Positions 14,098 to 34,143 of a DNA stretch of 64,000 nucleotides are shown here, piece after piece. Each line of letters begins with the position of its first letter. Position 1 is the stretch's first letter. Position numbers and translations under genes: made by a program. The notes under the pieces are model-generated. The model had not been told where the DNA came from, did not search any database, and saw only the letters and a list, made by a program, of their open reading frames with translations. Origin of the DNA: Candidatus Hydrogenedentota bacterium (GTDB lineage: Bacteria > Hydrogenedentota > Hydrogenedentia > Hydrogenedentales > JAEUWI01); contig JAXMOL010000002.1 in assembly GCA_034669905.1 (NCBI GenBank), forward strand, positions 96,001 to 160,000, given 5' to 3'.

Positions 14098-14501
14098 GAT
14101 AAACCTCGTATAGTTGGCAGGCGATCACCGGGGAATTTCGACGACACAAAAAGGATGGAGCCGTGATCGCAGGCCACATCGCTATCCGCTCTGGGTGGAA
14201 GGAAGTGCACAGAACATGCGGGGTGCGGCACCCAGAAACCGTGGACCCAGTATACGGCAGCGCCCATTTTCCGCGCAAGCATGACCTGTTTGCAAAGCCA
14301 CTGTTGAAGCGTTACCATGGTGGAAGGGAATGCTGTTTTCACCGTGTACAATATCTGGAGAGAGGTATTATCGTGGCTGTTTTCGTAATGGGTACGGGTG
14401 CGCAGCACTCGCTTCAAAATGTCGTTGCACTCTTGGAAAAACAGCTATTGCGCACGCAGGGAATCCCCCGACGCATCAACGCCTGGAGTGGTAACTTCCG
14501 G

Positions 14502-15875
14502 ATGGAAGCAGAGCGTGTCGACTTCGAGTCGCCCTTCTGTCGTTTCGTCGTTTTTCTGCCGGAAGATTGGCCCGACATCGCCGCACTTGAAGAAAAAGCC
14601 CGGAGTCTCGCACCCTATGGCGCGGTCTCGCACAATGAGGATAACGTCCAGTTTTCCTTCGCACCGCCCGAAGGCGAAGGACCAGAGAAAACGCTTGAAG
14701 CCTTCGATGCCTTCGCGGCCGAATTCACCCTCCCGGAAGTGTGGCGGGCAGAGGGCGACAAATACCGCCTCGACCACATCAGCGCCGAACTCCTCTTCAA
14801 GGCTATCATCCAATACCGTGCCAGTGACGTACACCTTTCCCCCGGCGTGAGTCCTGTGTTCCGCATCGACGGGGAGACGCGCTCCTCCGATCTGCTGGGT
14901 CCCCTTTCCGCCGTTCAGATTGAAAGCCTGATTCGCGAGATATGCCTCGACGAAGCCTGGAAAGAATTTGAACTGACCCGGCAAACAAGTTTTAACTACC
15001 ACCAGTCGGGCCTGGGGTATTCCCGCGTATCGGCCTTCGTCAAATCGGGCGCGCCCCATTGCACGATTCGATTCCTACCGGAGACCATCCCCAGCTTTGA
15101 GGAGCTTCACGTTCCGAAAGATACCATGGTCAAGCTGGCCGAACTCCACCGGGGGCTGCTCCTCGTAACGGGCATGACCGGCAGCGGTAAAACGACCACT
15201 GTGGCCGCCCTCATCGACTGGATCAATTCCACCCGATCCAGTCATATTCTCACCATCGAGAACCCCATCGAGTTTGTGCATACCAATAAGAAGTCTATCG
15301 TCTCCCAACGAAACCTCGGCCTGGATGTGGACTCGTTTTATGACGCCGTCACCGGCGCATTGCGCCATGACCCCGACGTCATCCTGATTGGTGAAATGCG
15401 GGACCCCGATACCATCCGGTCGGCCATCAACGCGGCGGCCACCGGCCACCTGGTGGTGAGTACGCTCCACGCCAACACGGCAGCCGAAGTGGTGAACCGG
15501 GTGCTCAGCTTCTTCGATCCCATTGAGCGCGACCTGGTGAAACTCCAGCTGCGCGACTGTCTCCAATGCGTTATCTGCCAACGCCTCGTCCCCAAACTCG
15601 GGGGTGGCCGCATACCCGCCCTCGAAATGATGCTCAACGATGTAAAGGCCATCGCCGATGGCATCATGGAAGGCAGCACCGACCACATTCGCATCGGGAT
15701 GCAGCAAACGGTTTCCCACTCCTTCCTCTTCGAGCACTACCTCCATAATCTGCTGAAGCAACAGAAAGTCGATCTGGCCCACGCCCAGGAGTTTGCCACC
15801 GACCAGAGCATGCTCGACCAGATTCGTATGGGCACCTACGCCGTACCCCGCTTGGAAGGCGTGCGCGCACACTAA
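14502..15875 (+). CDS. PilT/PilU-family type IV pilus ATPase with an N-terminal extension
   Basis: ASDVHL, GMTGSGKTTT, IENPIEF, ALRHDPDVILIGEMRD, TGHLVVSTLH. Start chosen at ATG 14502 (GGAG upstream). Confidence 0.9.
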   Translation: MEAERVDFESPFCRFVVFLPEDWPDIAALEEKARSLAPYGAVSHNEDNVQFSFAPPEGEGPEKTLEAFDAFAAEFTLPEVWRAEGDKYRLDHISAELLFKAIIQYRASDVHLSPGVSPVFRIDGETRSSDLLGPLSAVQIESLIREICLDEAWKEFELTRQTSFNYHQSGLGYSRVSAFVKSGAPHCTIRFLPETIPSFEELHVPKDTMVKLAELHRGLLLVTGMTGSGKTTTVAALIDWINSTRSSHILTIENPIEFVHTNKKSIVSQRNLGLDVDSFYDAVTGALRHDPDVILIGEMRDPDTIRSAINAAATGHLVVSTLHANTAAEVVNRVLSFFDPIERDLVKLQLRDCLQCVICQRLVPKLGGGRIPALEMMLNDVKAIADGIMEGSTDHIRIGMQQTVSHSFLFEHYLHNLLKQQKVDLAHAQEFATDQSMLDQIRMGTYAVPRLEGVRAH

Positions 15876-16182: not shown

Positions 16183-17703
16183 TCAGCCGGCCGACGTGAC
16201 CCCCGACCCCAAGGCCGGTACGGCATCTTCCGCGGCGGCGGGAACGGGCGGGGGCGTCGCGGCTTTCTTGCGCGCCAGATGGCGCAGACGGTGGATAATA
16301 ATCGCCTCGTTGCGAATGGAAACCGTCAGCGCAATCATGAACCAGTAGGGCTCCATGATGCGGACGATCAAGAATGAAATCGTGCCGAAAGAGTGGACGA
16401 TAAGGGCCGCCGTGGCCCCAAACATGCCCAGGGCAATACCCCGCGCCATCCAATCTTCCGTCCAGCGATACGCCTGGCGGGTCGTACGAAGCACCTGGAC
16501 CAATAAGAAGACAAACGCAACGAGCCCTACCACCCCGGTCTCGAGCAATACCCGGGCGTATTGGCTGTCCAGCACCGACTCCCACGAGACCCCGCCGCCA
16601 AAGAAAAAGAACTGGGGCCCCAGACTGAGAATAAACCCGACCTTTCGCCAGACGTGGACGCGCTCATAGGTGGACTTGTCGACGTTCACGCCGAAATCCC
16701 GGCCAGCTACGACCAAGTCACGGCCCCCGTCTTCTTGTATCGTATAGGCCACCCGCTCGATGACCTCCGCCGGCATGACCAGGGTGGATGAGGCGAGCAA
16801 AATGGCAATGCCGAGCAGTATCAGATACTTTCGGCTCATCAATGCGATAACCGTGAAGCCGACCAGCAGGGCCACGTAAGAAGCGCGCGAGAGCGTATAG
16901 AGCAGGGGAATAAACCCGATGGCGACCACGAAAAAATACACGCATTTCAGGCGTAGCTTTTTCGCCTGTAGCGCCAAGCCCAATGCCACGCAAAGACAAA
17001 TAACCAGATAGCCCCCCAACGTGTTCGGCTCCGTGCCGCCCTTTTCAAAGGGTGCACTCACGCGGGGGGTCGTCCCGATGCTGTAGATGCCATAGCCACT
17101 CACAATCAACATGACGATGAAGAACAGCAGGATCGGAGAACGAAGATCTTTGGACGCCCGTACGGAGTGGGCCACCATGAAAAAGATGAGATAGAACTCC
17201 AACATCTTTAACATGACGAAGAAGGCCGTCCGCTTATCCCACGCGGGCAAACTCCGTTCGTATGCCAGTATGGTCGCAAAAACACACACCGCAAAATAGG
17301 CGACGATGCCCGAGTTAATGGGACTTGGCTGCCAGAGGGCCAGTCGCCCCTCAAAGGTCAGCTTAATCATGACGCCAATGAAGATGACAATGATCAGCAG
17401 ATCGTCATAGCGGATATTGAGACTTCGATCGCCATTGGCCGCAGGCCGCAACTCGATCTCCGGCGACAACAACATGGCAATAATCAGGATAAACAGACCG
17501 AGTTCGACGCGGACAACCGTGCCGCCAAAGACCACCATGCTCACGGCCAGCGCCGCGGTGAGGCTGTCATTCCCCAGAATCAGGTGCTGGGCCACCAGAA
17601 TCATGCTGCTGAGGAGCATGAAGGCGGCGAAAATCGGGACTTCCAGTTGACTCTCGGCAACTTCACCACGACCGATTCCGCGCTCTGATCGGAAGAATGC
17701 CAT
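16183..17703 (-). CDS. O-antigen ligase / Wzy-like polytopic membrane protein
   Basis: About 12 hydrophobic segments; EPNTLGGYL, TLSRAS, DSQYARVLLETGVVG motifs. Confidence 0.8.
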   Translation of the reverse strand: MAFFRSERGIGRGEVAESQLEVPIFAAFMLLSSMILVAQHLILGNDSLTAALAVSMVVFGGTVVRVELGLFILIIAMLLSPEIELRPAANGDRSLNIRYDDLLIIVIFIGVMIKLTFEGRLALWQPSPINSGIVAYFAVCVFATILAYERSLPAWDKRTAFFVMLKMLEFYLIFFMVAHSVRASKDLRSPILLFFIVMLIVSGYGIYSIGTTPRVSAPFEKGGTEPNTLGGYLVICLCVALGLALQAKKLRLKCVYFFVVAIGFIPLLYTLSRASYVALLVGFTVIALMSRKYLILLGIAILLASSTLVMPAEVIERVAYTIQEDGGRDLVVAGRDFGVNVDKSTYERVHVWRKVGFILSLGPQFFFFGGGVSWESVLDSQYARVLLETGVVGLVAFVFLLVQVLRTTRQAYRWTEDWMARGIALGMFGATAALIVHSFGTISFLIVRIMEPYWFMIALTVSIRNEAIIIHRLRHLARKKAATPPPVPAAAEDAVPALGSGVTSAG

Positions 17704-17771: not shown

Positions 17772-20018
17772 TTAGAAGTGGTACCACTTGCGGCGGCCCG
17801 ACGACCCATCGTCATAGTAGTAGTAATAGTAGTAGTAGTGGCGGCGGGTCGTTTCCAGCCCGTTCACCACGACGCCGGCCACGGCCACCTTGGCCGTCGA
17901 CAGCAGCTTCTTCGCACGAATAACCGTTTCCCGGCGCGCATTGTTCGTCGACACGACCATCATGCAGGTGTCCACGTGGGTGGCCAGCAAGACCGGGTCC
18001 GTCACGACCAGCACCGAGGGCGCATCACAAATTACCAGGTCGAATGCCGCACCCAGCTGGTCCATCAACTCCGCCATGTGGTCCGAACCGATCAACTCGG
18101 ACGGGTTGGGGGGCACACGGCCGCTCGAAATAATCCAGAGATTGTCGATACGTGTAGGCCGGATTACGCTCTTGGAATCCACGCCCTCGCGCAACACATC
18201 AGCAAGCCCCGGGCCCCGTTCCATGCGCAACACGCGGTGCACATTGGGACGGCGCAAATCGGTGTCAACAATGAGGACCCGCATGCCCCGGTCGGCCATG
18301 GTTACCGCAAGGTTTACCGCCGTCGTCGTCTTCCCTTCACCCGGCACTGCGCTCGTCACCATTACCGTCTGGGGCTTGTCCTTAATGGTGGCAAACTGAA
18401 AATTGGTCCGCAGGGTTCGGTAGGCTTCCGAAATCGGCGACTTCGGGTCATGCTGCGTAACGATGCAGGAGTCGATTTGCTCCTCATCGACGGTACTGAC
18501 ATAGGTGGCCCGTCGTCTTCGCCCACCTCGGGGACGGCCAAAGCGCATCCGTGGAATCGTGCCGATCACCTCGAGGCCAATATACTCGTTAACATCCTCG
18601 ATACTTCGAATAGACGTATCGTTGTACTCCGTGACCATCGCAAAAACGAACATCACGATGAATCCAATAAGCCCGCCAATGGCAAAGTTGACCCACTGCT
18701 GACGGCTACCCGGCACGCCCATGGGCACCGCGGCCGCAATCGCATCTTTCCGCTCGACTGAGCCTAAGCCCCGCTCGATGTCCCGGCGAATTTCCATCTC
18801 CCGGTCGGAATACTGATTGAGGCGCTCTTCAATGTTTTCCACTTCGCGCTTCAGGCGATCCGAATCCACCTTGAGATTGGCCAACTCAGGCACGCGGGGA
18901 ATTAACTCTTCCCGCTCCTTCTTGATCGCCTGTTCCCGCAATTCCAGCCCCGTCATCTGAAGGCGGATTTCGATTTGCTGGCGGTAGATTTCGTTGCGCT
19001 TCACCCAGATATCGCTACCCCCTGGAACGCCCGAAGACTTCTGCTTCTCCGCTTCCAGGATGAGGGCCTGGGTCTCGGAAATAAGCTCTTCCAATTCAAT
19101 CAGGCGGGGCCAGCTGGGCTGATAAATGGCACTAAGGGTGAGCTTTTCTTCCAGCAGTTTATCGAGGTCCGCAAAGAGGCCGGTCACCAGGTTATCACTG
19201 GGCTGATTCAACGATTCCGAAAACTGTTCTGAAGCCAGCGCCAACTCCGCGTCCAGCTTGTTCAGCTTTTGCGTCGCCGCCACCTTGCTGACTTGAATCT
19301 CACGCAGCTCCCGCTCTTTCTCAGCCAGGCGCTGATCAATGTCTTCGTAGTCCTGGAAGCCGTGGGCCTGCATGAATTCCAGGCGCGCCTGCTCCGCTTC
19401 CGCCAGCTCATCCCGGAGAGACTGGATGATGCCTACCGCATCCTCGTGGCTATGCTGGGCCAATTCCAGATGACGGTGCCGATTCACTTCCAGAAAGGCG
19501 CGGGTCGCAATTTCGGCGATGGCGTTCGCCTCTTCGGCGGTCTCGCAGCGCTCCACCAGAATCTCAATATGCTGATCGCCCTGGGTCGCGATCCGTATTT
19601 TGCCTTGAATCGAGGCGACCAGGGCACGAAATTCGGCGGGGGAAACCACGTTGCTGGTGCGCCCTCCTGTCGCCACATCGGTCTGAATCAGGGCGCGGGC
19701 CACCTCTTCCGACAGGGCGTTCAGGCTCGTGCGCTCCACCAGACTCTCCGCCGTCATCACATATTGGGAAGGAGGCGACTTCGACATAATCCGGCTGGAG
19801 CGACCATCGGCAATCACGAGCTTGCCCGAGGTGCTGTATAAGGTTTCCGAGGTCTCCTGGGTAAACCAGGCAACGCCACCAAACGCCAACGCACCAAAGA
19901 GGGCGCCCAACAATAGGAGGAGCCAACGTTCGGAAATGACATTCCACAGAAATCGGAACTGATTGTCCTGGTTTTCCCGCGTCGTGTCTTCCAATACGGG
20001 TGCGTCTATACTCGACAT
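17772..20018 (-). CDS. wzc: Polysaccharide co-polymerase / tyrosine autokinase (Wzc-like)
   Basis: Two TM segments around a long coiled coil; SEAYRTLRTN, PGEGKTT, DTDLRRP, DAP motifs; C-terminal run of 8 Tyr. Confidence 0.92.
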   Translation of the reverse strand: MSSIDAPVLEDTTRENQDNQFRFLWNVISERWLLLLLGALFGALAFGGVAWFTQETSETLYSTSGKLVIADGRSSRIMSKSPPSQYVMTAESLVERTSLNALSEEVARALIQTDVATGGRTSNVVSPAEFRALVASIQGKIRIATQGDQHIEILVERCETAEEANAIAEIATRAFLEVNRHRHLELAQHSHEDAVGIIQSLRDELAEAEQARLEFMQAHGFQDYEDIDQRLAEKERELREIQVSKVAATQKLNKLDAELALASEQFSESLNQPSDNLVTGLFADLDKLLEEKLTLSAIYQPSWPRLIELEELISETQALILEAEKQKSSGVPGGSDIWVKRNEIYRQQIEIRLQMTGLELREQAIKKEREELIPRVPELANLKVDSDRLKREVENIEERLNQYSDREMEIRRDIERGLGSVERKDAIAAAVPMGVPGSRQQWVNFAIGGLIGFIVMFVFAMVTEYNDTSIRSIEDVNEYIGLEVIGTIPRMRFGRPRGGRRRRATYVSTVDEEQIDSCIVTQHDPKSPISEAYRTLRTNFQFATIKDKPQTVMVTSAVPGEGKTTTAVNLAVTMADRGMRVLIVDTDLRRPNVHRVLRMERGPGLADVLREGVDSKSVIRPTRIDNLWIISSGRVPPNPSELIGSDHMAELMDQLGAAFDLVICDAPSVLVVTDPVLLATHVDTCMMVVSTNNARRETVIRAKKLLSTAKVAVAGVVVNGLETTRRHYYYYYYYYDDGSSGRRKWYHF

Positions 20019-20021
20019 CGC

Positions 20022-21500
20022 CTAGTCCTTTCGCACTTCCGCACGGGCTTCAAGCGCGGCCAGAAACGGATCGGTATGGCCAAAGCCATCCATATCCAGA
20101 CTGCGCTCCCACCGAATATCTTCCGGCCGATCATGAATCGTCGGCGTAACAAAAATCATCAATTCGCGGCTGGTGCGCGTACGCTCTTTGTGCTTGAACA
20201 GGTTTCCGAAGATGGGAAGATTGCCCAGGCCCGGGAGCTTTTGAATCACCGTGTGGTTGTCGGCCATCACGATACCGCCGATCACCAGGGACTGACCATC
20301 CCGCACGATGCGCTGGCTGTTGCTGCTGCGCAGGGCGCGCACGGGCACCCCATTGGAAACGCCAACCGCGGTGGACACTTCGGGGGCCAACTCCACCAGG
20401 ACGTAACGTCCCCCATCTGGATCGCGGCGCACGTGGGGCACCACTTCCAACACAATACCAATCTCCAGGAACTGCACATTTTCGACGGAAGAAAAGCCGG
20501 CCGTCCCGACTTCGGAATAGGGAAACTCTTCCGTCATCCGAATCGTTGCCGGTTTGTGGTTGACCGTACCCACATAAGGGGACGCCAACAACTCGGCTTT
20601 GTCGTCGGCCACGAGGGCATCCAGCATGACCCCCAAATCGATCCCGCTGTTCATGTACCCGAGAAACATCTGGCCCGGGGCAGCGACCTGAACCGGTACC
20701 TGAAGGCGCCGATCAAAGTTTGCTTCATCCAGGAAACGACGGCTGGGCCCCCCGCCCCGATTACCGGTATCGAGTGACTCATTGAATTCAGGACCCACGG
20801 ACTGACGAATGGAGGTCAGCAGGGCATCCTGCCGCGGTGGTGGCGTGTATCCACCGCCCGCATGGTCTCCCTGGACGAACCAACGGATACCCAACTCTTT
20901 GGCGGCCGCCGTTTCCACTTCCACGATCTTGGACTCAATCAGCACCTGGGTAATCTGAGATTCCATCTGGTCCAACTCGTGGATGACGGAAATCATGTTT
21001 TGAAGAATCCCCGATTCGTCGGTCAGAATCAGGCTGTTGGTGTTGGGGTCGAAGCTGACGCTGCCACCAGCCGATGACATGCCATTCAGCGCTTTTTCCA
21101 GGCCGCCGGCGTCGGCATTATTCAAGGGGATAACCTTGGTCTGCATCGACTGGGTCCGCATGACGCCACCGGGAAGGGCCATAGCGCCCTCGATGCTTCG
21201 GGAAACGGTGACCCGCGGATTTTTCAGGATACTCTTGAATCCCATGGAGACCCGTGCTCCGGCATCATTCAGACTCAGCCCCTTCAAGGTGACGTTGCCA
21301 ATATACGGCAATTCCACGTTGCCCTGGCTGTCTATCTGGGTGGTCGTCGAAAGTTCCGGCTGACGATGCACGTTGATATACACCAGATCCCCGGGTTTCA
21401 AAAAATCCTCTTTCATCGGCTCGGCCGCAAAAGACGGCCCGCCGAGACAAAGGCAGACGAAAAGGGGAATCAGGGTGAACCGCGTTGGCAGGCTTAACAT
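20022..21500 (-). CDS. Fusion of a Wza-like polysaccharide-export domain with a secretin (N3 + C domains)
   Basis: LKPGD.V.I.V..QPELS..IDSQGNVELPYIG.V..GLS..KNPRVTV, then VIPLNNADA..DPNTNSLIL..QVLIESKIVEV and VRDGQSLVIGG..KLPGLGNLPIFGNLFK..ELMIFVTPTI. Confidence 0.85.
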   Translation of the reverse strand: MLSLPTRFTLIPLFVCLCLGGPSFAAEPMKEDFLKPGDLVYINVHRQPELSTTTQIDSQGNVELPYIGNVTLKGLSLNDAGARVSMGFKSILKNPRVTVSRSIEGAMALPGGVMRTQSMQTKVIPLNNADAGGLEKALNGMSSAGGSVSFDPNTNSLILTDESGILQNMISVIHELDQMESQITQVLIESKIVEVETAAAKELGIRWFVQGDHAGGGYTPPPRQDALLTSIRQSVGPEFNESLDTGNRGGGPSRRFLDEANFDRRLQVPVQVAAPGQMFLGYMNSGIDLGVMLDALVADDKAELLASPYVGTVNHKPATIRMTEEFPYSEVGTAGFSSVENVQFLEIGIVLEVVPHVRRDPDGGRYVLVELAPEVSTAVGVSNGVPVRALRSSNSQRIVRDGQSLVIGGIVMADNHTVIQKLPGLGNLPIFGNLFKHKERTRTSRELMIFVTPTIHDRPEDIRWERSLDMDGFGHTDPFLAALEARAEVRKD

Positions 21501-21564
21501 GAGTTTTCACTCCACAGGGTTATCTGTTACCGGGCCTCCCTGAGGGACGGACTCCGGTTTTTGA

Positions 21565-23622
21565 CTATTGGGTTGGACCCGGCGCTACCGGGGCAGCATC
21601 TACGGCATCTACGGCCTCCACGGCCCCGTCGGTGCCCTCAGCACCTTCCGGCACGGTAACTACTGCCGGAAACTCCGCCATAGGATTCTCTTCACGACTT
21701 TCGGCACCGGCTTCTGGCATTTCTTCCGGCATGACCTCCGGTGCTGCCTCCGGTGCGGTCTCGGCCGCCGGGCTACTATTCTGCCCCGCCGCTTCCGCCT
21801 CCGGCACCTGACCTTCCTCCACCGCCCCGGTTTCTTCGTAGCTCAGCCATTCCAGGTTCTTCTGCAACTCCGCCTTCATACTCGGCTCGATACCTGGGAC
21901 CTGGATAGCCCGTTGCCAATAGGACGCCGCGGTCTCCATAAAGGCTTCCCGGTCAGCGTCCGATGTCGCCAGATCGGCACGGACCTTAAACATCTCCCCG
22001 AGGCTGCGAAAATCCTGATCCACCGAATAGTTCCCCGGCAGGTAGGCGGCCTGAAGATAGGCGCTCTCTGCCGCGTCATACTCCGACTTCTGGCTATAGG
22101 CCCGGGCGAGATAGCGCAACATGGTCAGCGCTCCCTGGGGGTCGTTGGCGGGATCAGCCTGATCACGCAACAGGGCAATCGCCTTGTCGTAGTCGCCCAA
22201 TTCATAGTAGAGCCGACCCATAATCGTTTCCGCACGGGTCCGTTTGCGGTGCAATGGATTCTCTTCGATAAAGGTGCTGAACCGTTCGACGGCCGCTGTA
22301 TAACGGCGGCGCATTTCATCCCGTGAGCGGATGTCGCCCAGGGTCAAGGCATAGGCCGCACGGAACTGGGCGTCCGCCAGGGCCACCGGGTCTGCCCCCA
22401 CTTTGTGGGCCAGATTGTCGTAGGCCCGCGAGGCTTCCGGATATTTCCCTTCCTTCATCAAGCGGCTGGCCTTTACTTCCAGGTCTTCAGCCCGCTGCAA
22501 TACGGGAGCGACCACATAGATGTAGCCCGCGACCACCCCACCCACAACCACGAACAGCAAGGTGATCACGCGGATTACCTTGCCGGCCCGCCGTCCACCC
22601 CGCGTATGGCGCTTGGAACGGCGTCGGGCAGGGGCGGCACTGTAATCGTAGGATAAATCGGCATCCAGCTCGGCAGATGCCGGACTGGTAGCACTGTAGG
22701 TGGGCAACAAACTCGGCGCAGGCACGGGCGGTGCCGCTTCTTCCGGGGGACGTTTCCCCAGGGCCTGCATCAATTGCTCGGCTTCGGCGAGTGCATCCCG
22801 GGAAGGCGCTTTTTGTGCGGGTTCCGGTGGCGCCGTCGCAGGAGCGGGCTCCGCTTCCGGGCCTTCCTCGATGGCGTTAACCCCTTCCGCCACGGAATCC
22901 AACAGGGAATCCCAGTCATCGGTCAGGGCCTGGTCCGCAACGGGCACTTCGGGTGTCGGCGCTGCTGGCACGTCGGGGCTATGGGGAACTTCTTCGGCGA
23001 CGGGAGGCGTGTCCGGTTGGGCATTAACCTCCTCGATCTGTTCCAACAGCGCCAACAAATCCGCTGACGGTGAGGAGGTTTCTTCCGGCTCAGGAGGGGC
23101 TTCCAGGGCAGGACGATAGGGTGCCGTGACACGCGTATCGTCCGGCACCTCTGCGAACCCCGACTCGAGGCCCGCTACAATATCCTTAAAGGCGTCTACC
23201 GACGAGCCCGTGACCGGAGCATCGCTGCGGAGGGTATCTCCCCCCCGATCCGGCACCAGATTGGCATCCAGGGTAACATCCGACAAGCCGCCCACAGCCC
23301 CATCACCCCCATCATCTACGTCGGCCACACCCTTCTCATAGAAACTCAGGGGAGCCGAGGGATTCAGGTCGTCATCGCTTGCCGTGTCTTCGGCAGGTGG
23401 GGCGGCCGGGGCGCTCTCGCGAACGGGCGCCCGAGTAAGCCCGGACATCTGAATAAAGTCGAGGGGATTGGCACGCTGCCCATCGGGCACGCCGCTGCCA
23501 AAGCGATCGTCGTCGGGCATCCCGGCAAGCAGATCACCATCGATCGCCTCCACGGCATCCGGTGCAAAGGGATCGTTCCCCTCACCCGAAAAACCATGCT
23601 CCTGTTCGGCACCTGGCGCCAT
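21565..23622 (-). CDS. Bitopic membrane protein with an acidic Pro/Ala-rich N-terminus and periplasmic TPRs
   Basis: Basic patch followed by a TM segment (VITLLFVVVGGVVAGYIYVV); TPR-like MGRLYYELGDYDKAIALL. ATG 23622 lies just after the upstream stop. Confidence 0.75.
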   Translation of the reverse strand: MAPGAEQEHGFSGEGNDPFAPDAVEAIDGDLLAGMPDDDRFGSGVPDGQRANPLDFIQMSGLTRAPVRESAPAAPPAEDTASDDDLNPSAPLSFYEKGVADVDDGGDGAVGGLSDVTLDANLVPDRGGDTLRSDAPVTGSSVDAFKDIVAGLESGFAEVPDDTRVTAPYRPALEAPPEPEETSSPSADLLALLEQIEEVNAQPDTPPVAEEVPHSPDVPAAPTPEVPVADQALTDDWDSLLDSVAEGVNAIEEGPEAEPAPATAPPEPAQKAPSRDALAEAEQLMQALGKRPPEEAAPPVPAPSLLPTYSATSPASAELDADLSYDYSAAPARRRSKRHTRGGRRAGKVIRVITLLFVVVGGVVAGYIYVVAPVLQRAEDLEVKASRLMKEGKYPEASRAYDNLAHKVGADPVALADAQFRAAYALTLGDIRSRDEMRRRYTAAVERFSTFIEENPLHRKRTRAETIMGRLYYELGDYDKAIALLRDQADPANDPQGALTMLRYLARAYSQKSEYDAAESAYLQAAYLPGNYSVDQDFRSLGEMFKVRADLATSDADREAFMETAASYWQRAIQVPGIEPSMKAELQKNLEWLSYEETGAVEEGQVPEAEAAGQNSSPAAETAPEAAPEVMPEEMPEAGAESREENPMAEFPAVVTVPEGAEGTDGAVEAVDAVDAAPVAPGPTQ

Positions 23623-23623
23623 A

Positions 23624-24643
23624 TCAGCCCAATCCCTGATCGTGTCTGGCCCGCGCGGATCGCAACAGCAAATCGGCCGCGCGCTGGTCACGCGACTGCT
23701 GGTCTCGCACATTACGTTCCCGCATTCCGCCGGGTGCCACCGGTGCTACCGGGGCCGGTGGTCGAACGGATGCCCCGACAGCAGCGGCCACACGGGCACG
23801 CTTCTCGGGATCGGGCAACGTTGTCTTTTCAATCGTATGTAACACTATATCGTGCGTTATACGCTTGGTCTTTAGCTGGGCCGCCAACAGGAGGGAATTG
23901 CGGCACAGGGTCACCATGACCCGGGGGCTGCCCTCGGCATAAGCGTGAATCGCACGCAGGGCGCCCTCTTCAAACTCCGGTCCGATGCCTTCCTGGCTGC
24001 CTGCCTGACGCAATCGAAACGCAATAAACTGCTTGGCTTCGTCAAAATCGATGGGTTCCAGCGTATAGGTCAGGTTAATACGCTGCTCAAAATTCGGAGC
24101 CGCCTGGAGCACCTGCATCCACTCTAGCTGCGCGAAGAAGACCAGATTCAACAGCTTCTGCTGCTGGGTTTCCAGGTTCTGCACCAGCCGCAATAACTCC
24201 AGCTGGCCCCGCTTGTTCAGATTCTGCGCATCGTCGATGATAAGCGTACAAATCCGATTCCGGTTCTCCAGAAGGTGCTGGTTCAACGCTTCCATGTAGG
24301 CCACAAAGGATTGTTCCGCCGGACGCAATCCAAATTGCGCTACGATACTCTCCAGCAGGGCAAAGCTGGTCCAGGAAGGTATGGGCGACCCAATCACGGC
24401 CGTGAGATAGCGCTCGGGATCAGCGGCCATGCCGGTCATCAGCTTCCGCAACAAGGTCGTCTTGCCCGTACCATAATTTCCGAGCACCACCGCGATGCCA
24501 TGGGAGGCATCAATCCCATTCCAAAGGCGGTAAAGGCACTCTTTATGGCCCCGGGTGGCGTAGAAATACACCGGGTCCGCCGTGGGAGCAAAAGGTTGCT
24601 CCGCGAGACCCAGCTGCCTTAAATAGGTTTGCGTTCCATCCAT
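23624..24643 (-). CDS. ExeA/GspA-family AAA ATPase
   Basis: LGLAEQPF..TADP.YFY, GNYGTGKTTL, LIIDDAQNL, LELLRLVQNLE, GSPRVMVTLC. Confidence 0.88.
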   Translation of the reverse strand: MDGTQTYLRQLGLAEQPFAPTADPVYFYATRGHKECLYRLWNGIDASHGIAVVLGNYGTGKTTLLRKLMTGMAADPERYLTAVIGSPIPSWTSFALLESIVAQFGLRPAEQSFVAYMEALNQHLLENRNRICTLIIDDAQNLNKRGQLELLRLVQNLETQQQKLLNLVFFAQLEWMQVLQAAPNFEQRINLTYTLEPIDFDEAKQFIAFRLRQAGSQEGIGPEFEEGALRAIHAYAEGSPRVMVTLCRNSLLLAAQLKTKRITHDIVLHTIEKTTLPDPEKRARVAAAVGASVRPPAPVAPVAPGGMRERNVRDQQSRDQRAADLLLRSARARHDQGLG

Positions 24644-30712: not shown

Positions 30713-32350
30713 CTATTGCACCATGGCCTTGATGGCGTCGATGCGTTCGATCTTCTCCCGCACGTCCTGCAAGACCGCTTTTTCTTCCTGAAAGGCCAGA
30801 CGCGGCGCCAGGAAAGCCGTCTTCAAATCCTGAAGACTGCCCTGTCGGGCCATCCAGGCCACAGAACGGATGGCGAAAGACAAAATCACCAGTTCCACCG
30901 TCGTGATGATGGCCAGCACCGTGGCGGAATGAATCAAGAAGGACACATCCAGGAAGCGGGCTTCCAGATAGGACTTCACGACAATAAAGGCCGTGTAGCA
31001 CAGGAAGGCCACCGGCGGTGCATCCAGCACGACAGTCGTCAACCACCGGCTCAACCGCCGGGCGCCCTGTTGCACCCGCTCCCGGGCCGGCCCCTTAATC
31101 ACCGAGACCAGCCGCCGGTCCAATTCTTGTTGGAAGGCCGCTTCGCCGGCGCCTTCGCGCACTTCAATACCGGCGCGCACAAAGGTCAGGGCCAGTTCGC
31201 TCTGTTGGGTGCGGTAATATTCCAGGACCCGCTCCGGCGCGATGGTTTCTTCGTGGGGCATGAGGTCATCGCTCGTCAGCAACTCTGCCGCACGCCGTCC
31301 CTCGCTGTTTTTCAGCCCGGCCAACGACAGAAAACTCGGCATCCGCATGGGCAAACTACGCAGCGCATCGACCACGCGATAGCAAATGCCGATATAGCCT
31401 TTGGAGCGCACGCTCGTCTCCCGGCCCACGGCGTAGGTCCAGAGATGGGGCTCGGCAAACAGGTGATTGCTCACAAAACCGAGGCTCTCGCGGGCAAGGG
31501 CTTTGTCCGATTCCTGAATCCCTTTTTCCAACTCCGCCAGGGCGGGCCTGATTTCTTCCGCGATCTCATCGAGGCGCTGTGTCGCCTTCTGGAGGAGTCC
31601 CGCCACGTTGGACCGCTTGATACGCGCGATGCGTTCGCGGTTCAACTCCTGGCGCAAAAACTGGTCCAGGGCCGGGCCGTCGTATTCTTCTTCCTCAGGC
31701 GCACCACCCGCCATCTTGCGATCCAGCGTGCGCAGGGCGTTCACCCGAAAGTAGGGGCCCGTCTCAAAGCCCTGCTCCTTCAGCCGTTCCAGCCAATGCG
31801 CCTTGACCGAAGGATGGGGCCCCGCCTTGGTCTCCACACAGATCATGGCCCGCTGTCCCCGCAATGGACGCAAGAGGGACCAACTGGCTTCGTCCAGGTA
31901 TTTTTCCGTGCTCGCACACAACACGATCAAATCACATTGCTTCAAGACCTCGACGGTGCGCTCCCGGTGAATGTGAGCGATGCTGTCCGAGTCGGGTGTA
32001 TCAATCAGCACGAGGTGCTCGAGGGCCGACCGGGGCACCCCTTCCCATTCGTGGAAAGGTAACTCCGTTCCCGGCGGGTGATAGGCCATGGGCTTGGTGG
32101 TGCAGGGGCGCATGGCCGAGGTCAGGGCGATCTGGTCCCCCGCGATGGCATTGAGCAAGGTCGATTTTCCGACGCCAGATCCCCCAACGAGGGCCACCAC
32201 CAGCACATCGTCCAGGCGGGCTTCGCGGGTCTGCAACTCGTTCACCCGTTCACGAAGGCGCACCGTCTCCTGACGGAGGGCCTTCCAGGGGCCGTCATAT
32301 GCGGCCAGACTTTCCAGGTGTTCGAGGACGTTTAAGATACTGTCAGACAC
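30713..32350 (-). CDS. Dynamin-like / Era-type GTPase-domain membrane protein
   Basis: GGSGVGKST, RPCT, LIDTPDSD motifs; helical stalk; two C-terminal hydrophobic helices. Confidence 0.75.
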   Translation of the reverse strand: MSDSILNVLEHLESLAAYDGPWKALRQETVRLRERVNELQTREARLDDVLVVALVGGSGVGKSTLLNAIAGDQIALTSAMRPCTTKPMAYHPPGTELPFHEWEGVPRSALEHLVLIDTPDSDSIAHIHRERTVEVLKQCDLIVLCASTEKYLDEASWSLLRPLRGQRAMICVETKAGPHPSVKAHWLERLKEQGFETGPYFRVNALRTLDRKMAGGAPEEEEYDGPALDQFLRQELNRERIARIKRSNVAGLLQKATQRLDEIAEEIRPALAELEKGIQESDKALARESLGFVSNHLFAEPHLWTYAVGRETSVRSKGYIGICYRVVDALRSLPMRMPSFLSLAGLKNSEGRRAAELLTSDDLMPHEETIAPERVLEYYRTQQSELALTFVRAGIEVREGAGEAAFQQELDRRLVSVIKGPARERVQQGARRLSRWLTTVVLDAPPVAFLCYTAFIVVKSYLEARFLDVSFLIHSATVLAIITTVELVILSFAIRSVAWMARQGSLQDLKTAFLAPRLAFQEEKAVLQDVREKIERIDAIKAMVQ

Positions 32351-34104
32351 TGCGTGTGAATCCTTCGAAGGGTCTCCGCCGCCTCACTCTCGAGGGCTGC
32401 ACGGCCTTCCGCGAGCGGCACGAGGGCCGCTTTCAATATATGTTCATGGAGCGCCCGCTCAAATCGGGCCTGTTGTTCTTTGTGCCAGGGCGCCATAAGG
32501 TCCACCCACTTATCGGCAAATTGATGCTCCAGCACCCGGGAGAAAAACTCCCCCGCCAGGGGACTCGTCGCCGCCACCACTTCCGGCACCCCCACACCGC
32601 CCGAGTAAACCGCCAGCGGCAAGGCCACGGCCGTAGGGGCGAGCATGAGCATGGCATCCAACTGCACCAGGAAGAGACGACGCATCTTGTTGTCGTTCCA
32701 CCAGTCGTCCAGGGTCTTTTCCGCATGGGCACGAAAGGCTTCCGAAATATTGTCATCCACCAGCGTCGCCGCCTCCACCGCGGCAACGACCTCCGTAACC
32801 TCGAGCGCTTCAAAGCGCCTGGCCACCATATCCCGTGCGGGTTGGTCGAGGTGCTCTGCCATCTCCACACAGTCCCGGATAAAGTCCCGGGTGCGGATGG
32901 ATAACTCGCGCGAATGATGGGAGCGCAACTCGTCGGCCGTGGGCGGTTTCCTGGCCGAGGTGAGGGTCAGTCGGCTGCGCACCATTTCACCCAGCGAACG
33001 ACCCACATAGCTCACCCCATCCACCGCCGCCGCACCCACCTTACCGACCGTCCGGCTCACTGCGCCGCGACGGGCCTTGATGTGGTTGTGAAGTAGTTTC
33101 CCGACTTCCGCGCCGGGCTCCGGATCATAGGTCTGTGCCACGGCTTCTGCACGGTGCTCAAACAACTTCGCCACCCCATCAAAGGTCTTTGCAAAGTCGT
33201 CCAGTCGCGCCACGAATTCCTCGGTATGGGCCGTAAAATGTTTCAAGGTATCGCGGTACACCCGATCCTTGGTGTCGACCACATCCATCTGCTCCAGGTA
33301 GCTGCGCAGGGGCGCTGTACCGCTGAGCGAGGCGATGGCGTGGTCACAGGATTCCATCAGCGTAAAATCGTGGGGCACCACGAAAAAAATGCGTTCTTCG
33401 ATACCGACAGACTGACAGAAATCTTCCAGCTGGGCCCGCGCCACTTCAAAATCCTGGGCGTCATTGGCCTTGTTCATCAGGGGCAGGATGACCCGTCCCG
33501 AATCGGCCGCCTGACGAAAGTAGGCAATAACCTGCTCGTCCTGGTATTTCTCCCCTGTGAGGACCGCAATCAGCACATCGCACACCGCCTGGATATTCTC
33601 CGCCACATCCCAATTGATGAGGTCGATGGAATCCACGTCGGGCACGTCAAGCAGGACCATGTGGTCGGGCAGGCCGTCACTGGCTTTCATAAACAGGGTG
33701 TCGGGTGCGGCGCTCCGGTCGATAGGGTCGGTGTCGTGGGCCTGAAAACGTGCCTGAAGGCCCGGAACCAGGTTTCCCGCCACCCCCTGATCGAAGCGGT
33801 GCTGATTGCCGACCAGCAAGGGCCGACAGGTCGCCGCCGCCGTGGCCCGGACCGGACTCAATTCTTTGCCCGCCAGGAGGTTAAAGACGGTCGATTTGCC
33901 CGTATTCGTGCCACCCGCCACCGCCGCGACGAGCACATCCTTCCCCGCTAACTGGGGGAGGAGCTTAAAGGTCAGCAATTTCCGCCACTCGCCCGTATCC
34001 TCAAAGAGGGCCCCATGGAGCGCCGGCTGCCCTTCCAACGCGGCATCCAGCGCTTGAAGGGCGGTGTCGAAGACTTCCAGATCGTGATTCAAGGCATCAT
34101 CCAT
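32332..34104 (-). CDS. Dynamin-like GTPase-domain protein
   Basis: GGTNTGKST, LLDVPDVDS, MNKA motifs; hydrophobic paddle-like segment; overlaps the next gene. Confidence 0.75.
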   Translation of the reverse strand: MDDALNHDLEVFDTALQALDAALEGQPALHGALFEDTGEWRKLLTFKLLPQLAGKDVLVAAVAGGTNTGKSTVFNLLAGKELSPVRATAAATCRPLLVGNQHRFDQGVAGNLVPGLQARFQAHDTDPIDRSAAPDTLFMKASDGLPDHMVLLDVPDVDSIDLINWDVAENIQAVCDVLIAVLTGEKYQDEQVIAYFRQAADSGRVILPLMNKANDAQDFEVARAQLEDFCQSVGIEERIFFVVPHDFTLMESCDHAIASLSGTAPLRSYLEQMDVVDTKDRVYRDTLKHFTAHTEEFVARLDDFAKTFDGVAKLFEHRAEAVAQTYDPEPGAEVGKLLHNHIKARRGAVSRTVGKVGAAAVDGVSYVGRSLGEMVRSRLTLTSARKPPTADELRSHHSRELSIRTRDFIRDCVEMAEHLDQPARDMVARRFEALEVTEVVAAVEAATLVDDNISEAFRAHAEKTLDDWWNDNKMRRLFLVQLDAMLMLAPTAVALPLAVYSGGVGVPEVVAATSPLAGEFFSRVLEHQFADKWVDLMAPWHKEQQARFERALHEHILKAALVPLAEGRAALESEAAETLRRIHTQCLTVS

Positions 34105-34143
34105 AGACGTGAACCGGTGGAACGGGGCGAGCAAGGCGGGACA

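Follow-up and report, generated by a model that had tools for sequence, protein, structure and literature searches.

A polysaccharide-export domain fused to a secretin in Hydrogenedentota: a candidate secretin-gated exit for a Wzy-made polymer

Introduction

Can a secretin serve as the outer-membrane exit for a polysaccharide? This question is raised by a gene in a stretch of 64,000 nucleotides from a Candidatus Hydrogenedentota bacterium (the window hereafter; assembly GCA_034669905.1, contig JAXMOL010000002.1, positions 96,001 to 160,000), where a single open reading frame joins the Poly_export (D1) domain of proteins for outer-membrane polysaccharide export (OPX) to a secretin. Three outer-membrane exits have been described, namely Wza-type OPX barrels, synthase-type beta-barrels, and composites of an OPX protein with a beta-barrel (PMC9601211), and the fusion fits none of the three. 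Secretins have been connected with exopolymers through the finding that PilQ/GspD is required for slime secretion in cyanobacteria and Myxococcus xanthus; the authors of that work consider direct transport the most plausible of two readings, and passage of the polymer is unproven (PMC12475490). Here we conclude that the fusion is probably a secretin-gated outer-membrane exit for the Wzy-made polymer of a Wzx/Wzy-type pathway.

The first-pass annotation of the window knew of no characterized example of such a protein, and none was found in the literature either, the secretin-dependent slime secretion of PMC12475490 being a partial precedent. The word "secretin" is absent from the main text of both PMC9601211 and PMC12819527. 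No description of the fusion turned up in a literature whose subscription part was thinly covered, and the supplementary OPX tables of 10.1101/2022.02.11.480155 may list such proteins.

An OPX domain and a secretin in one protein

Three Pfam families match the product: Poly_export (PF02563) at residues 32-100 with 59.3 bits against a cut-off of 28, Secretin_N (PF03958) at residues 121-182 with 50.3 bits against 28.2, and Secretin (PF00263) at residues 295-455 with 117.2 bits against 27.5. These are the only families found at E<=0.01, with SLBB, Wza_C, GfcC (PF06251), STN and N0 all absent. The first-pass annotation had described an OPX/Wza Poly_export N-terminus followed, in place of the SLBB domains and C-terminal helix of Wza, by one N3-like domain and a secretin C domain in a single frame at 20022-21500, and this description holds in each of its parts, the C-terminal two thirds of the protein being secretin. 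When the N-termini of 41 family members were inspected by eye, an apparent cleavable, non-lipoprotein signal peptide was seen.

An AlphaFold2 monomer model built on a 67-sequence alignment has a mean predicted local distance difference test score (pLDDT) of 73.7 and a predicted template-modeling score of 0.47, at which the relative placement of domains is unreliable. Within it, blocks of D1 reach pLDDT 88-96, linker residues 105-111 fall below 50, and the secretin core has predicted strands at 318-359, 365-400 and 405-456. The modeled D1 (32-104) superposes on M. xanthus WzaB (9n9a) with Z 13.7 and a root-mean-square deviation (rmsd) of 1.2 over 73 aligned residues, and on Wza with Z 10.4-11.6 (best 7xfd, Z 11.6, rmsd 1.5). 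WzaB is its closest relative by sequence as well as by fold (E 2.7e-6), and alignments to WzaB and Wza show that D1 of the fusion is without the insert present in the D1 of Escherichia coli Wza. The predicted N3-position domain (residues 115-183) fits secretin N domains with Z 9-11, and residues ~115-490 superpose on the ExeD, GspD, pIV and PilQ secretins with Z 12-14, a result in which Foldseek concurs; sequence search against PDB secretins gives E values down to 1e-31. The protein scores below every NCBIfam secretin cut-off, with 185.6 against 351 for TIGR02517 and 179.3 against 284 for TIGR02515.

With an N3 domain followed by a PF00263 core, and with PF02563, the fusion has the features that define the secretin superfamily and OPX proteins in general. 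The narrower groupings do not accommodate it. All three classes in the available part of the OPX classification carry SLBB (10.1101/2022.02.11.480155), which both ordinary OPX proteins of this genome match and the fusion does not; nor does it have the Wza_C pore of class 1, the GfcC domain of class 2 or the separate barrel gene of class 3. The N0/STN domain, family score and pilin or platform linkage of GspD and PilQ are likewise missing. The protein belongs to no OPX class, though it likely works like an OPX protein.

Distribution of the fusion

All 71 homologues retrieved with residues 1-190 of the protein have the three Pfam domains. We profiled 135 Hydrogenedentota genomes with a D1+N3 profile, and 63 gave a single full-length match in a stop-free frame; in three further cases the match spans the junction up to a contig end (one) or is broken at contig ends (two), and another genome has the secretin half at a contig end, which brings the gene to 67 of 135 genomes. 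These belong to 9 of 15 families, and two large families are without it (0/23 and 0/10). For the window itself, a contig of sequencing run X1, which may be the source sample, spans 18511-22500 without any difference. An assembly chimera is ruled out by the shared architecture of the homologues, the in-frame genomes and this identical contig, and the fusion is genuine and present in relatives.

The 78 genome loci that we retrieved comprise 46 members of the fusion family and 32 ordinary secretins; no D1 match was found in these 32 or in the 80 metagenome loci listed, which are ordinary secretins. In a protein-cluster search all three domains occur together in one cluster of 57 members, of which Hydrogenedentota is the commonest phylum, and in no second cluster among the matches listed. 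A further group, distant from the first, has all three domains too and was recovered from 1.84 billion representatives (P0158, P0203 and their relatives P0230, P0231 and P0224). A quick secretin tree gives each of the two groups good support (100 and 99) but their sister relationship only weak support (81), and in it the fusions branch apart from the GspD and PilQ of this genome. No fusion turned up among genomes sampled from two further phyla (301 and 168), which is not proof of absence. A wider host range, suggested by loci titled Nitrospiraceae, Nitrospirales and Bathyarchaeia, was rejected because their ATPases nest among those of Hydrogenedentota; the locus titled Bathyarchaeia, which lacks an ATPase, is not part of the ATPase tree.

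Other combinations of these domains were also encountered. P0214 (1,026 aa) pairs two Poly_export with two Secretin_N domains and has no secretin core, and P0072, P0084 and many others are proteins of 2,000-5,500 aa in which 12-36 stretches match the portion of the profile that covers the secretin N domain.

A co-inherited, probable export unit

The fusion is the third of five genes in an operon ordered AAA ATPase, bitopic tetratricopeptide repeat (TPR) protein, fusion, Wzc and Wzy_C-like protein. The wzc gene starts 3 nt past the fusion stop, and its product has two transmembrane (TM) segments, a periplasmic part of ~400 aa, an intact Walker A/kinase motif and a run of eight Tyr; it scores 179.9 bits with TIGR01007 (cut-off 108) and matches PDB Wzc at E 1e-55. 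The polysaccharide co-polymerase (PCP) of type 2a that a Wzx/Wzy-dependent pathway requires is thereby encoded in the operon. Gene order is constant wherever the contig permits across the 46 loci. Linkage of homologues to wzc, the lack of which would have counted against the first-pass annotation, is borne out, with wzc directly after the fusion in 44 loci and the remaining two contigs stopping inside the fusion gene. The wzy-like gene is present in 36 (nine of the others are contig ends and one is a true absence), while the TPR gene and the ATPase gene precede the secretin in 41 and 35, respectively, and pilT lies near the operon in 12. Conserved neighbors are limited to the ATPase, TPR, wzc and wzy-like genes, a gene for an FHA-GAF-HD protein and pilT, and no separate beta-barrel porin gene was found among them; the operon encodes no pilin, platform protein or N0 domain.

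Presence and absence across the 135 genomes single out three of these genes. Orthologues of Wzc and of the Wzy-like protein each occur in 66 of the 67 fusion genomes, against one and none, respectively, of the 68 genomes without the fusion. The ATPase is present in 88 genomes and occurs without the fusion in 22. At the 21 of these 22 loci that were examined nothing matches the fusion or the wzy-like gene; four stop at a contig edge, and among the other 17 three retain a TPR domain and 14 do not. At two loci (L192, L199) the TPR gene or a remnant of it is joined directly to pilT, the three export genes having been deleted. Mapped on the ATPase tree, the fusion-less state requires 11 changes, at least 5 of them forced by well-supported branches, a count weakened by incomplete genomes and by the length of some branches. 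The fusion, wzc and the wzy-like gene are thus retained or lost as one unit, which has been lost several times; the TPR gene tends to go with it, and the ATPase and pilT do not. We accordingly rejected pilT as a component of the system, since it stays where the export genes are deleted, and the ATPase as an obligatory partner, since 22 genomes keep it alone.

Partial loss in two single cases agrees with this unit. In genome G130 the fusion and wzy-like genes are deleted and ATPase, TPR and Wzc are kept (L105, G130:C49, 7452-12497); this Wzc has an intact Walker A motif, has lost most of the Tyr run, carries Arg in place of the arm-tip aromatic, and has a diverged periplasmic part, at 25-29% to the consensus against a family median of 48-59%. 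At L035, apparently the locus of G075, the wzy-like gene is absent, the secretin sits on a long branch (1.25) and Wzc is without the Tyr run. Extra stand-alone Wzc copies with Tyr runs occur at L106:6007-8271, L107:7309-9618 and L108:1317-3314, with no adjacent OPX match; the genomes concerned possess the complete operon as well.

The three Poly_export genes of this genome are matched one-to-one with three Wzc genes, and the fusion alone stands beside the Wzc described here. The other two OPX proteins are of the ordinary, SLBB-containing kind; an exosortase locus encodes the first, and the second belongs to a cluster complete for synthesis. Two type II secretion system (T2SS) clusters and a PilMNOPQ cluster each carry their own secretin. 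A PF10082 barrel was not found in the genome, this being the one barrel family searched. Further secretins were noted in passing: one of a different type directly upstream of a 3-deoxy-D-manno-octulosonic acid (Kdo) transferase gene in two genomes (L102:9023-10102, G000:C14; L035:19871-21319), and two short ones without an N-domain match that follow a TPR gene near lnt and murJ (L103:554-3916, G000:C8), where no pilus or T2SS genes lie in the stretch scanned.

These data can be set against the alternative that D1 merely tethers the secretin to Wzc and that the pore passes protein, a pilus or DNA, any polysaccharide leaving elsewhere or staying periplasmic. Nearly all characterized secretins carry proteins or filaments, the genome has two other OPX genes, and a PilT-family gene is sometimes nearby; moreover, the ATPase and TPR genes in front of the secretin make up a trio that we take to resemble an assembly module of the ExeA/ExeB-ExeD or MshL/M/N kind, the AAA ATPase being presumably ExeA-like. 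Yet the secretin tracks wzc and the wzy-like gene, and the ATPase and pilT remain upon its loss; pilin, platform and N0 are missing from the operon, the T2SS and type IV pilus clusters own their secretins, and the other two OPX genes each adjoin a Wzc of their own. We regard a mere tether as unlikely.

The Wzy-like protein and the cargo

The Wzy_C-like protein is likely a polymerase, the alternative being a ligase or transferase; a single-sequence search of it against PDB gave no match. In a second alternative the machine is coupled to Wzc but carries a glycoconjugate; the Wzy_C-like protein would then act as a ligase or oligosaccharyltransferase, and a glycoprotein or lipid-linked glycan would leave via the secretin. 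PF04932 spans ligases, transferases and polymerases, and the match to it is weak; the best NCBIfam matches, both below cut-off, are to a PEP-CTERM-associated O-glycosylation ligase and ATPase. The Wzy-like protein is also well conserved, at 49-63% across families, which is unusual for sugar-specific polymerases, and folded proteins would fit the lumen of a secretin. However, the kinase motif and Tyr run of Wzc, a hallmark of polymer chain control, are intact, and the operon contains no substrate or exosortase gene, the exosortase adjoining a different OPX-Wzc pair. A glycoconjugate cargo seems to us quite unlikely, and a Wzy-made polymer is the cargo that we prefer.

Flippase and glycosyltransferase clusters without OPX or Wzc are present elsewhere in the genome. 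One of them, ~50 kb from the operon on the same contig (L214:1885-17921, G000:C2), holds a flippase, a Wzy_C protein and ~eight glycosyltransferases, has no OPX, Wzc or priming transferase, and is a candidate source of repeat units. Two tandem priming-transferase-like genes, the first with a truncated Bac_transf, follow bacA at L212:12026-14755 (G000:C7).

Conservation of D1 and its putative docking residues

In Wza, PslD and WzaB, Wzc is bound through D1, and the PCP octamer houses the polymerase. Column conservation in the fusion family is 0.69 for D1, the same as for N3 (0.69) and close to that of the secretin core (0.72), against 0.25 for the linker, whose length between R101 and R115 varies from 8 to 14 residues (37 sequences). 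Six within-genus pairs give nonsynonymous differences (pN) of 0.03-0.11 and synonymous differences (pS) of 0.26-0.78 in D1, like the secretin core, and D1 is under purifying selection. A vestigial D1, appended by chance through fusion of neighboring genes and nonfunctional, would fit the absence of the SLBB that all OPX classes in the available part of 10.1101/2022.02.11.480155 possess, but is largely refuted, and in our judgment very improbable, given this conservation, pN far below pS, and a D1 that stays in frame both in the distant second clade and in all 63 full matches, which come from 9 of 15 families.

Structures of characterized pairs indicate which residues might dock. Wza D99, E102 and Y155 contact Wzc K332, Y334, T335 and H338 (PMC12881504), WzaB R106-R107 is implicated in PCP binding (PMC12819527), and PslD 118-121 contacts motif 3 of PslE, whose ring encloses the polymerase (PMC13434223). 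Among 37 fusions the position of Wza E102 is Glu in 33 and that of WzaB R106 is Lys or Arg in all. Residue 299 of the operon's Wzc, in a weak alignment of the arm tip (E 0.027), falls on E. coli Wzc Y334 and is aromatic in 39 of 39 sequences; a single-sequence search with the Wzc arm against PDB found no match. Such residues are reported not to be conserved among OPX proteins (PMC13434223), and because they vary in this way their partial retention is compatible with docking and no demonstration of it.

Proposed mechanism and points against it

The first-pass annotation had suggested that polysaccharide may exit through a secretin gate, and the analysis supports this suggestion. We propose that Wzc and the Wzy-like protein make the polymer at the inner membrane from repeat units that would be supplied by glycosyltransferase and flippase genes elsewhere. 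The arm tips of Wzc would reach and dock D1 of the fusion, and the chain would leave via the N3 ring and the secretin gate, the secretin presumably assembling and opening for the polymer. The TPR protein, likely an accessory factor, may aid assembly, and our guess is that the pressure of the polymer opens the gate in place of a pilus. Wzc is an octamer, and secretins form gated outer-membrane rings of 12-17 subunits. Typically they have C13-C15 symmetry (PMC12531336), and the mismatch of 8 with 13 to 15 could be absorbed by the flexible linker if only some D1 copies are engaged; four Wzc arms are suggested to be enough to recruit Wza, in a state possibly artefactual according to its authors (PMC12881504).

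Several points weigh against this reading. The symmetry mismatch itself is expected, and the operon encodes no energized pilus or piston to open the gate. Genes for a flippase, for a priming transferase and for any conserved glycosyltransferase are missing from the operon, and 40 flanking proteins selected from >100 include two glycosyltransferases and neither a flippase nor a priming transferase, the flanks being variable. One priming transferase is found in 50 of 67 fusion genomes and 24 of 68 others, not tracking the operon, and another occurs also in genomes without it. As to the polymerase, the Wzy-like protein scores 21.9 bits with PF04932, below the cut-off of 31.7. At the putative docking surface, 36 of 37 fusions have Arg where Wza has D99, the position of Wza Y155/WzaB Y104 is mostly Ile or Val, and that of WzaB R107 is mostly Asn, while on the other side the arm profile of the family maps weakly to E. 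coli Wzc 317-354 (E 0.027), and K332 and H338 are not conserved. Co-occurrence counts overstate independence because of the relatedness of the genomes, the incompleteness of many of them, and the 4 loci among the 21 with only the ATPase that end at a contig edge; in G130, moreover, this Wzc has outlasted the pore for some time. Lastly, the organisms are uncultured, and the evidence is drawn from sequence and models.

Stated in full, the claim is that a dedicated secretin, standing in for both the helical barrel of Wza and the separate beta-barrel porin, docked through D1 on a Wzc octamer despite the symmetry mismatch and opened by the growing polymer in place of a pilus or pseudopilus, constitutes a fourth outer-membrane polysaccharide translocon in about half of Hydrogenedentota genomes and in a second, unplaced clade, which we think fairly likely. 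If true, it would add to the three described exits and bear on whether polymer passes through secretins at all, as raised in PMC12475490.

Features of the operon and its surroundings

Table 1. Genes and protein features of the export operon and of the adjacent convergent gene, in window coordinates
Feature	Position	Strand	Basis
OPX-D1::secretin fusion gene, 492 aa	20022..21500	-	single uninterrupted open reading frame; three Pfam domains above cut-off
Signal peptide, likely cleavable (~residues 1-26), without conserved lipoprotein Cys	21423..21500	-	hydrophobic stretch 1-19
Poly_export / OPX D1 domain, residues 32-104	21189..21407	-	PF02563; fold match; alignments to WzaB and Wza
Variable linker, ~residues 105-117, likely flexible	21150..21188	-	length variation; low conservation; low pLDDT
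Single secretin N (N3-position) domain, ~residues 118-183	20952..21149	-	PF03958; structure matches
Secretin core, ~residues 184-456, long predicted hairpins	20133..20951	-	PF00263; PDB secretins; model
C-terminal tail, ~36 residues, conserved, at the secretin S-domain position (putative role)	20025..20132	-	family tails; conservation 0.52
Wzc-type co-polymerase / tyrosine autokinase, 748 aa	17772..20018	-	TIGR01007; PDB Wzc; motifs; hydropathy
Predicted Wzc arm tip, residues 296-304	19107..19133	-	family profile onto E. coli Wzc, weak, E 0.027
Wzy_C-like membrane protein, 506 aa, ~12 TM	16183..17703	-	PF04932; hydropathy; co-occurrence
Bitopic protein: acidic N-terminal part, TM 382-400, TPR domain	21565..23712	-	TPR Pfam matches; hydropathy
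AAA ATPase, first operon gene, related to PEP-CTERM-system ATPase	23624..24643	-	AAA_22; TIGR03015
PilT-family ATPase, convergent, probably outside the system	14163..15875	+	TIGR01420, 340 bits

The true start of the TPR protein possibly lies ~30 codons downstream of that given in Table 1, and the AAA ATPase scores 156.6 bits with TIGR03015, below its cut-off of 324.5. The PilT-family ATPase has an N-terminal extension of ~200 aa without a Pfam match. A gene for an FHA-GAF-HD-GYP-type protein stands divergently upstream of the ATPase gene in 23 of 46 loci (e.g. L007:3995-5788, -), and is found also in many loci that have lost the export genes, so that this signaling gene may be the one with which the ATPase is associated; in some loci a presumably HDOD-like gene follows. 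In the window it does not adjoin the operon. Tandem dynamin-like GTPase genes occupy 30713-34134 (-) of the window.

Comparison with known systems

The nearest relatives by D1 are the class-3 systems of M. xanthus, WzaB-WzpB-WzcB and EpsY-EpsX (PMC12819527, PMC9601211, 10.1101/2022.02.11.480155). Like their OPX proteins, the fusion has a D1 without the Wza insert and with a basic residue where WzaB has R106, forms no helical pore itself, and has an adjacent PCP-2a partner. It differs from them in having no SLBB/D2 and no evident lipoprotein anchor, and its outer-membrane part is a fused, multimeric secretin, whereas theirs is a separate 18-stranded barrel. Systems that, like the fusion, hold D1 and pore in one polypeptide are Wza-Wzc of E. 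coli (PDB 2J58, 9R60/9R64; PMC12881504) and PslD-PslE-PslJ of Pseudomonas aeruginosa (PMC13434223). With Wza-Wzc it further shares the order of OPX gene then wzc, the Wzc kinase motif, the Tyr tail and the aromatic arm tip. In contrast to both, its pore is a secretin in place of an octameric barrel of the helical (Wza) or parallel-strand (PslD) kind, SLBB is missing, a symmetry mismatch is expected, and the operon lacks wzb, flippase and glycosyltransferase genes.

From the side of the secretins, an N3-position domain and secretin core are common to the fusion and to GspD of T2SS, PilQ of type IV pili, RcpA of Tad, SctC of the type III secretion system and phage pIV, from which it differs in having no N0/STN/AMIN domain and an operon without pilin or platform genes. 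Slime nozzles of cyanobacteria and M. xanthus resemble it in that a secretin has been put forward as an exopolymer gate, but they are ordinary PilQ/GspD for which the available part of PMC12475490 describes no OPX domain or PCP link. In the fusion a secretin is covalently linked to the domain known for docking on Wzc and has genetic ties to wzc and to a wzy-like gene, and this three-gene set allows direct examination of whether polysaccharide can pass through secretins, how a 13-15-mer is fitted to an octamer and how a gate may open without a pilus.

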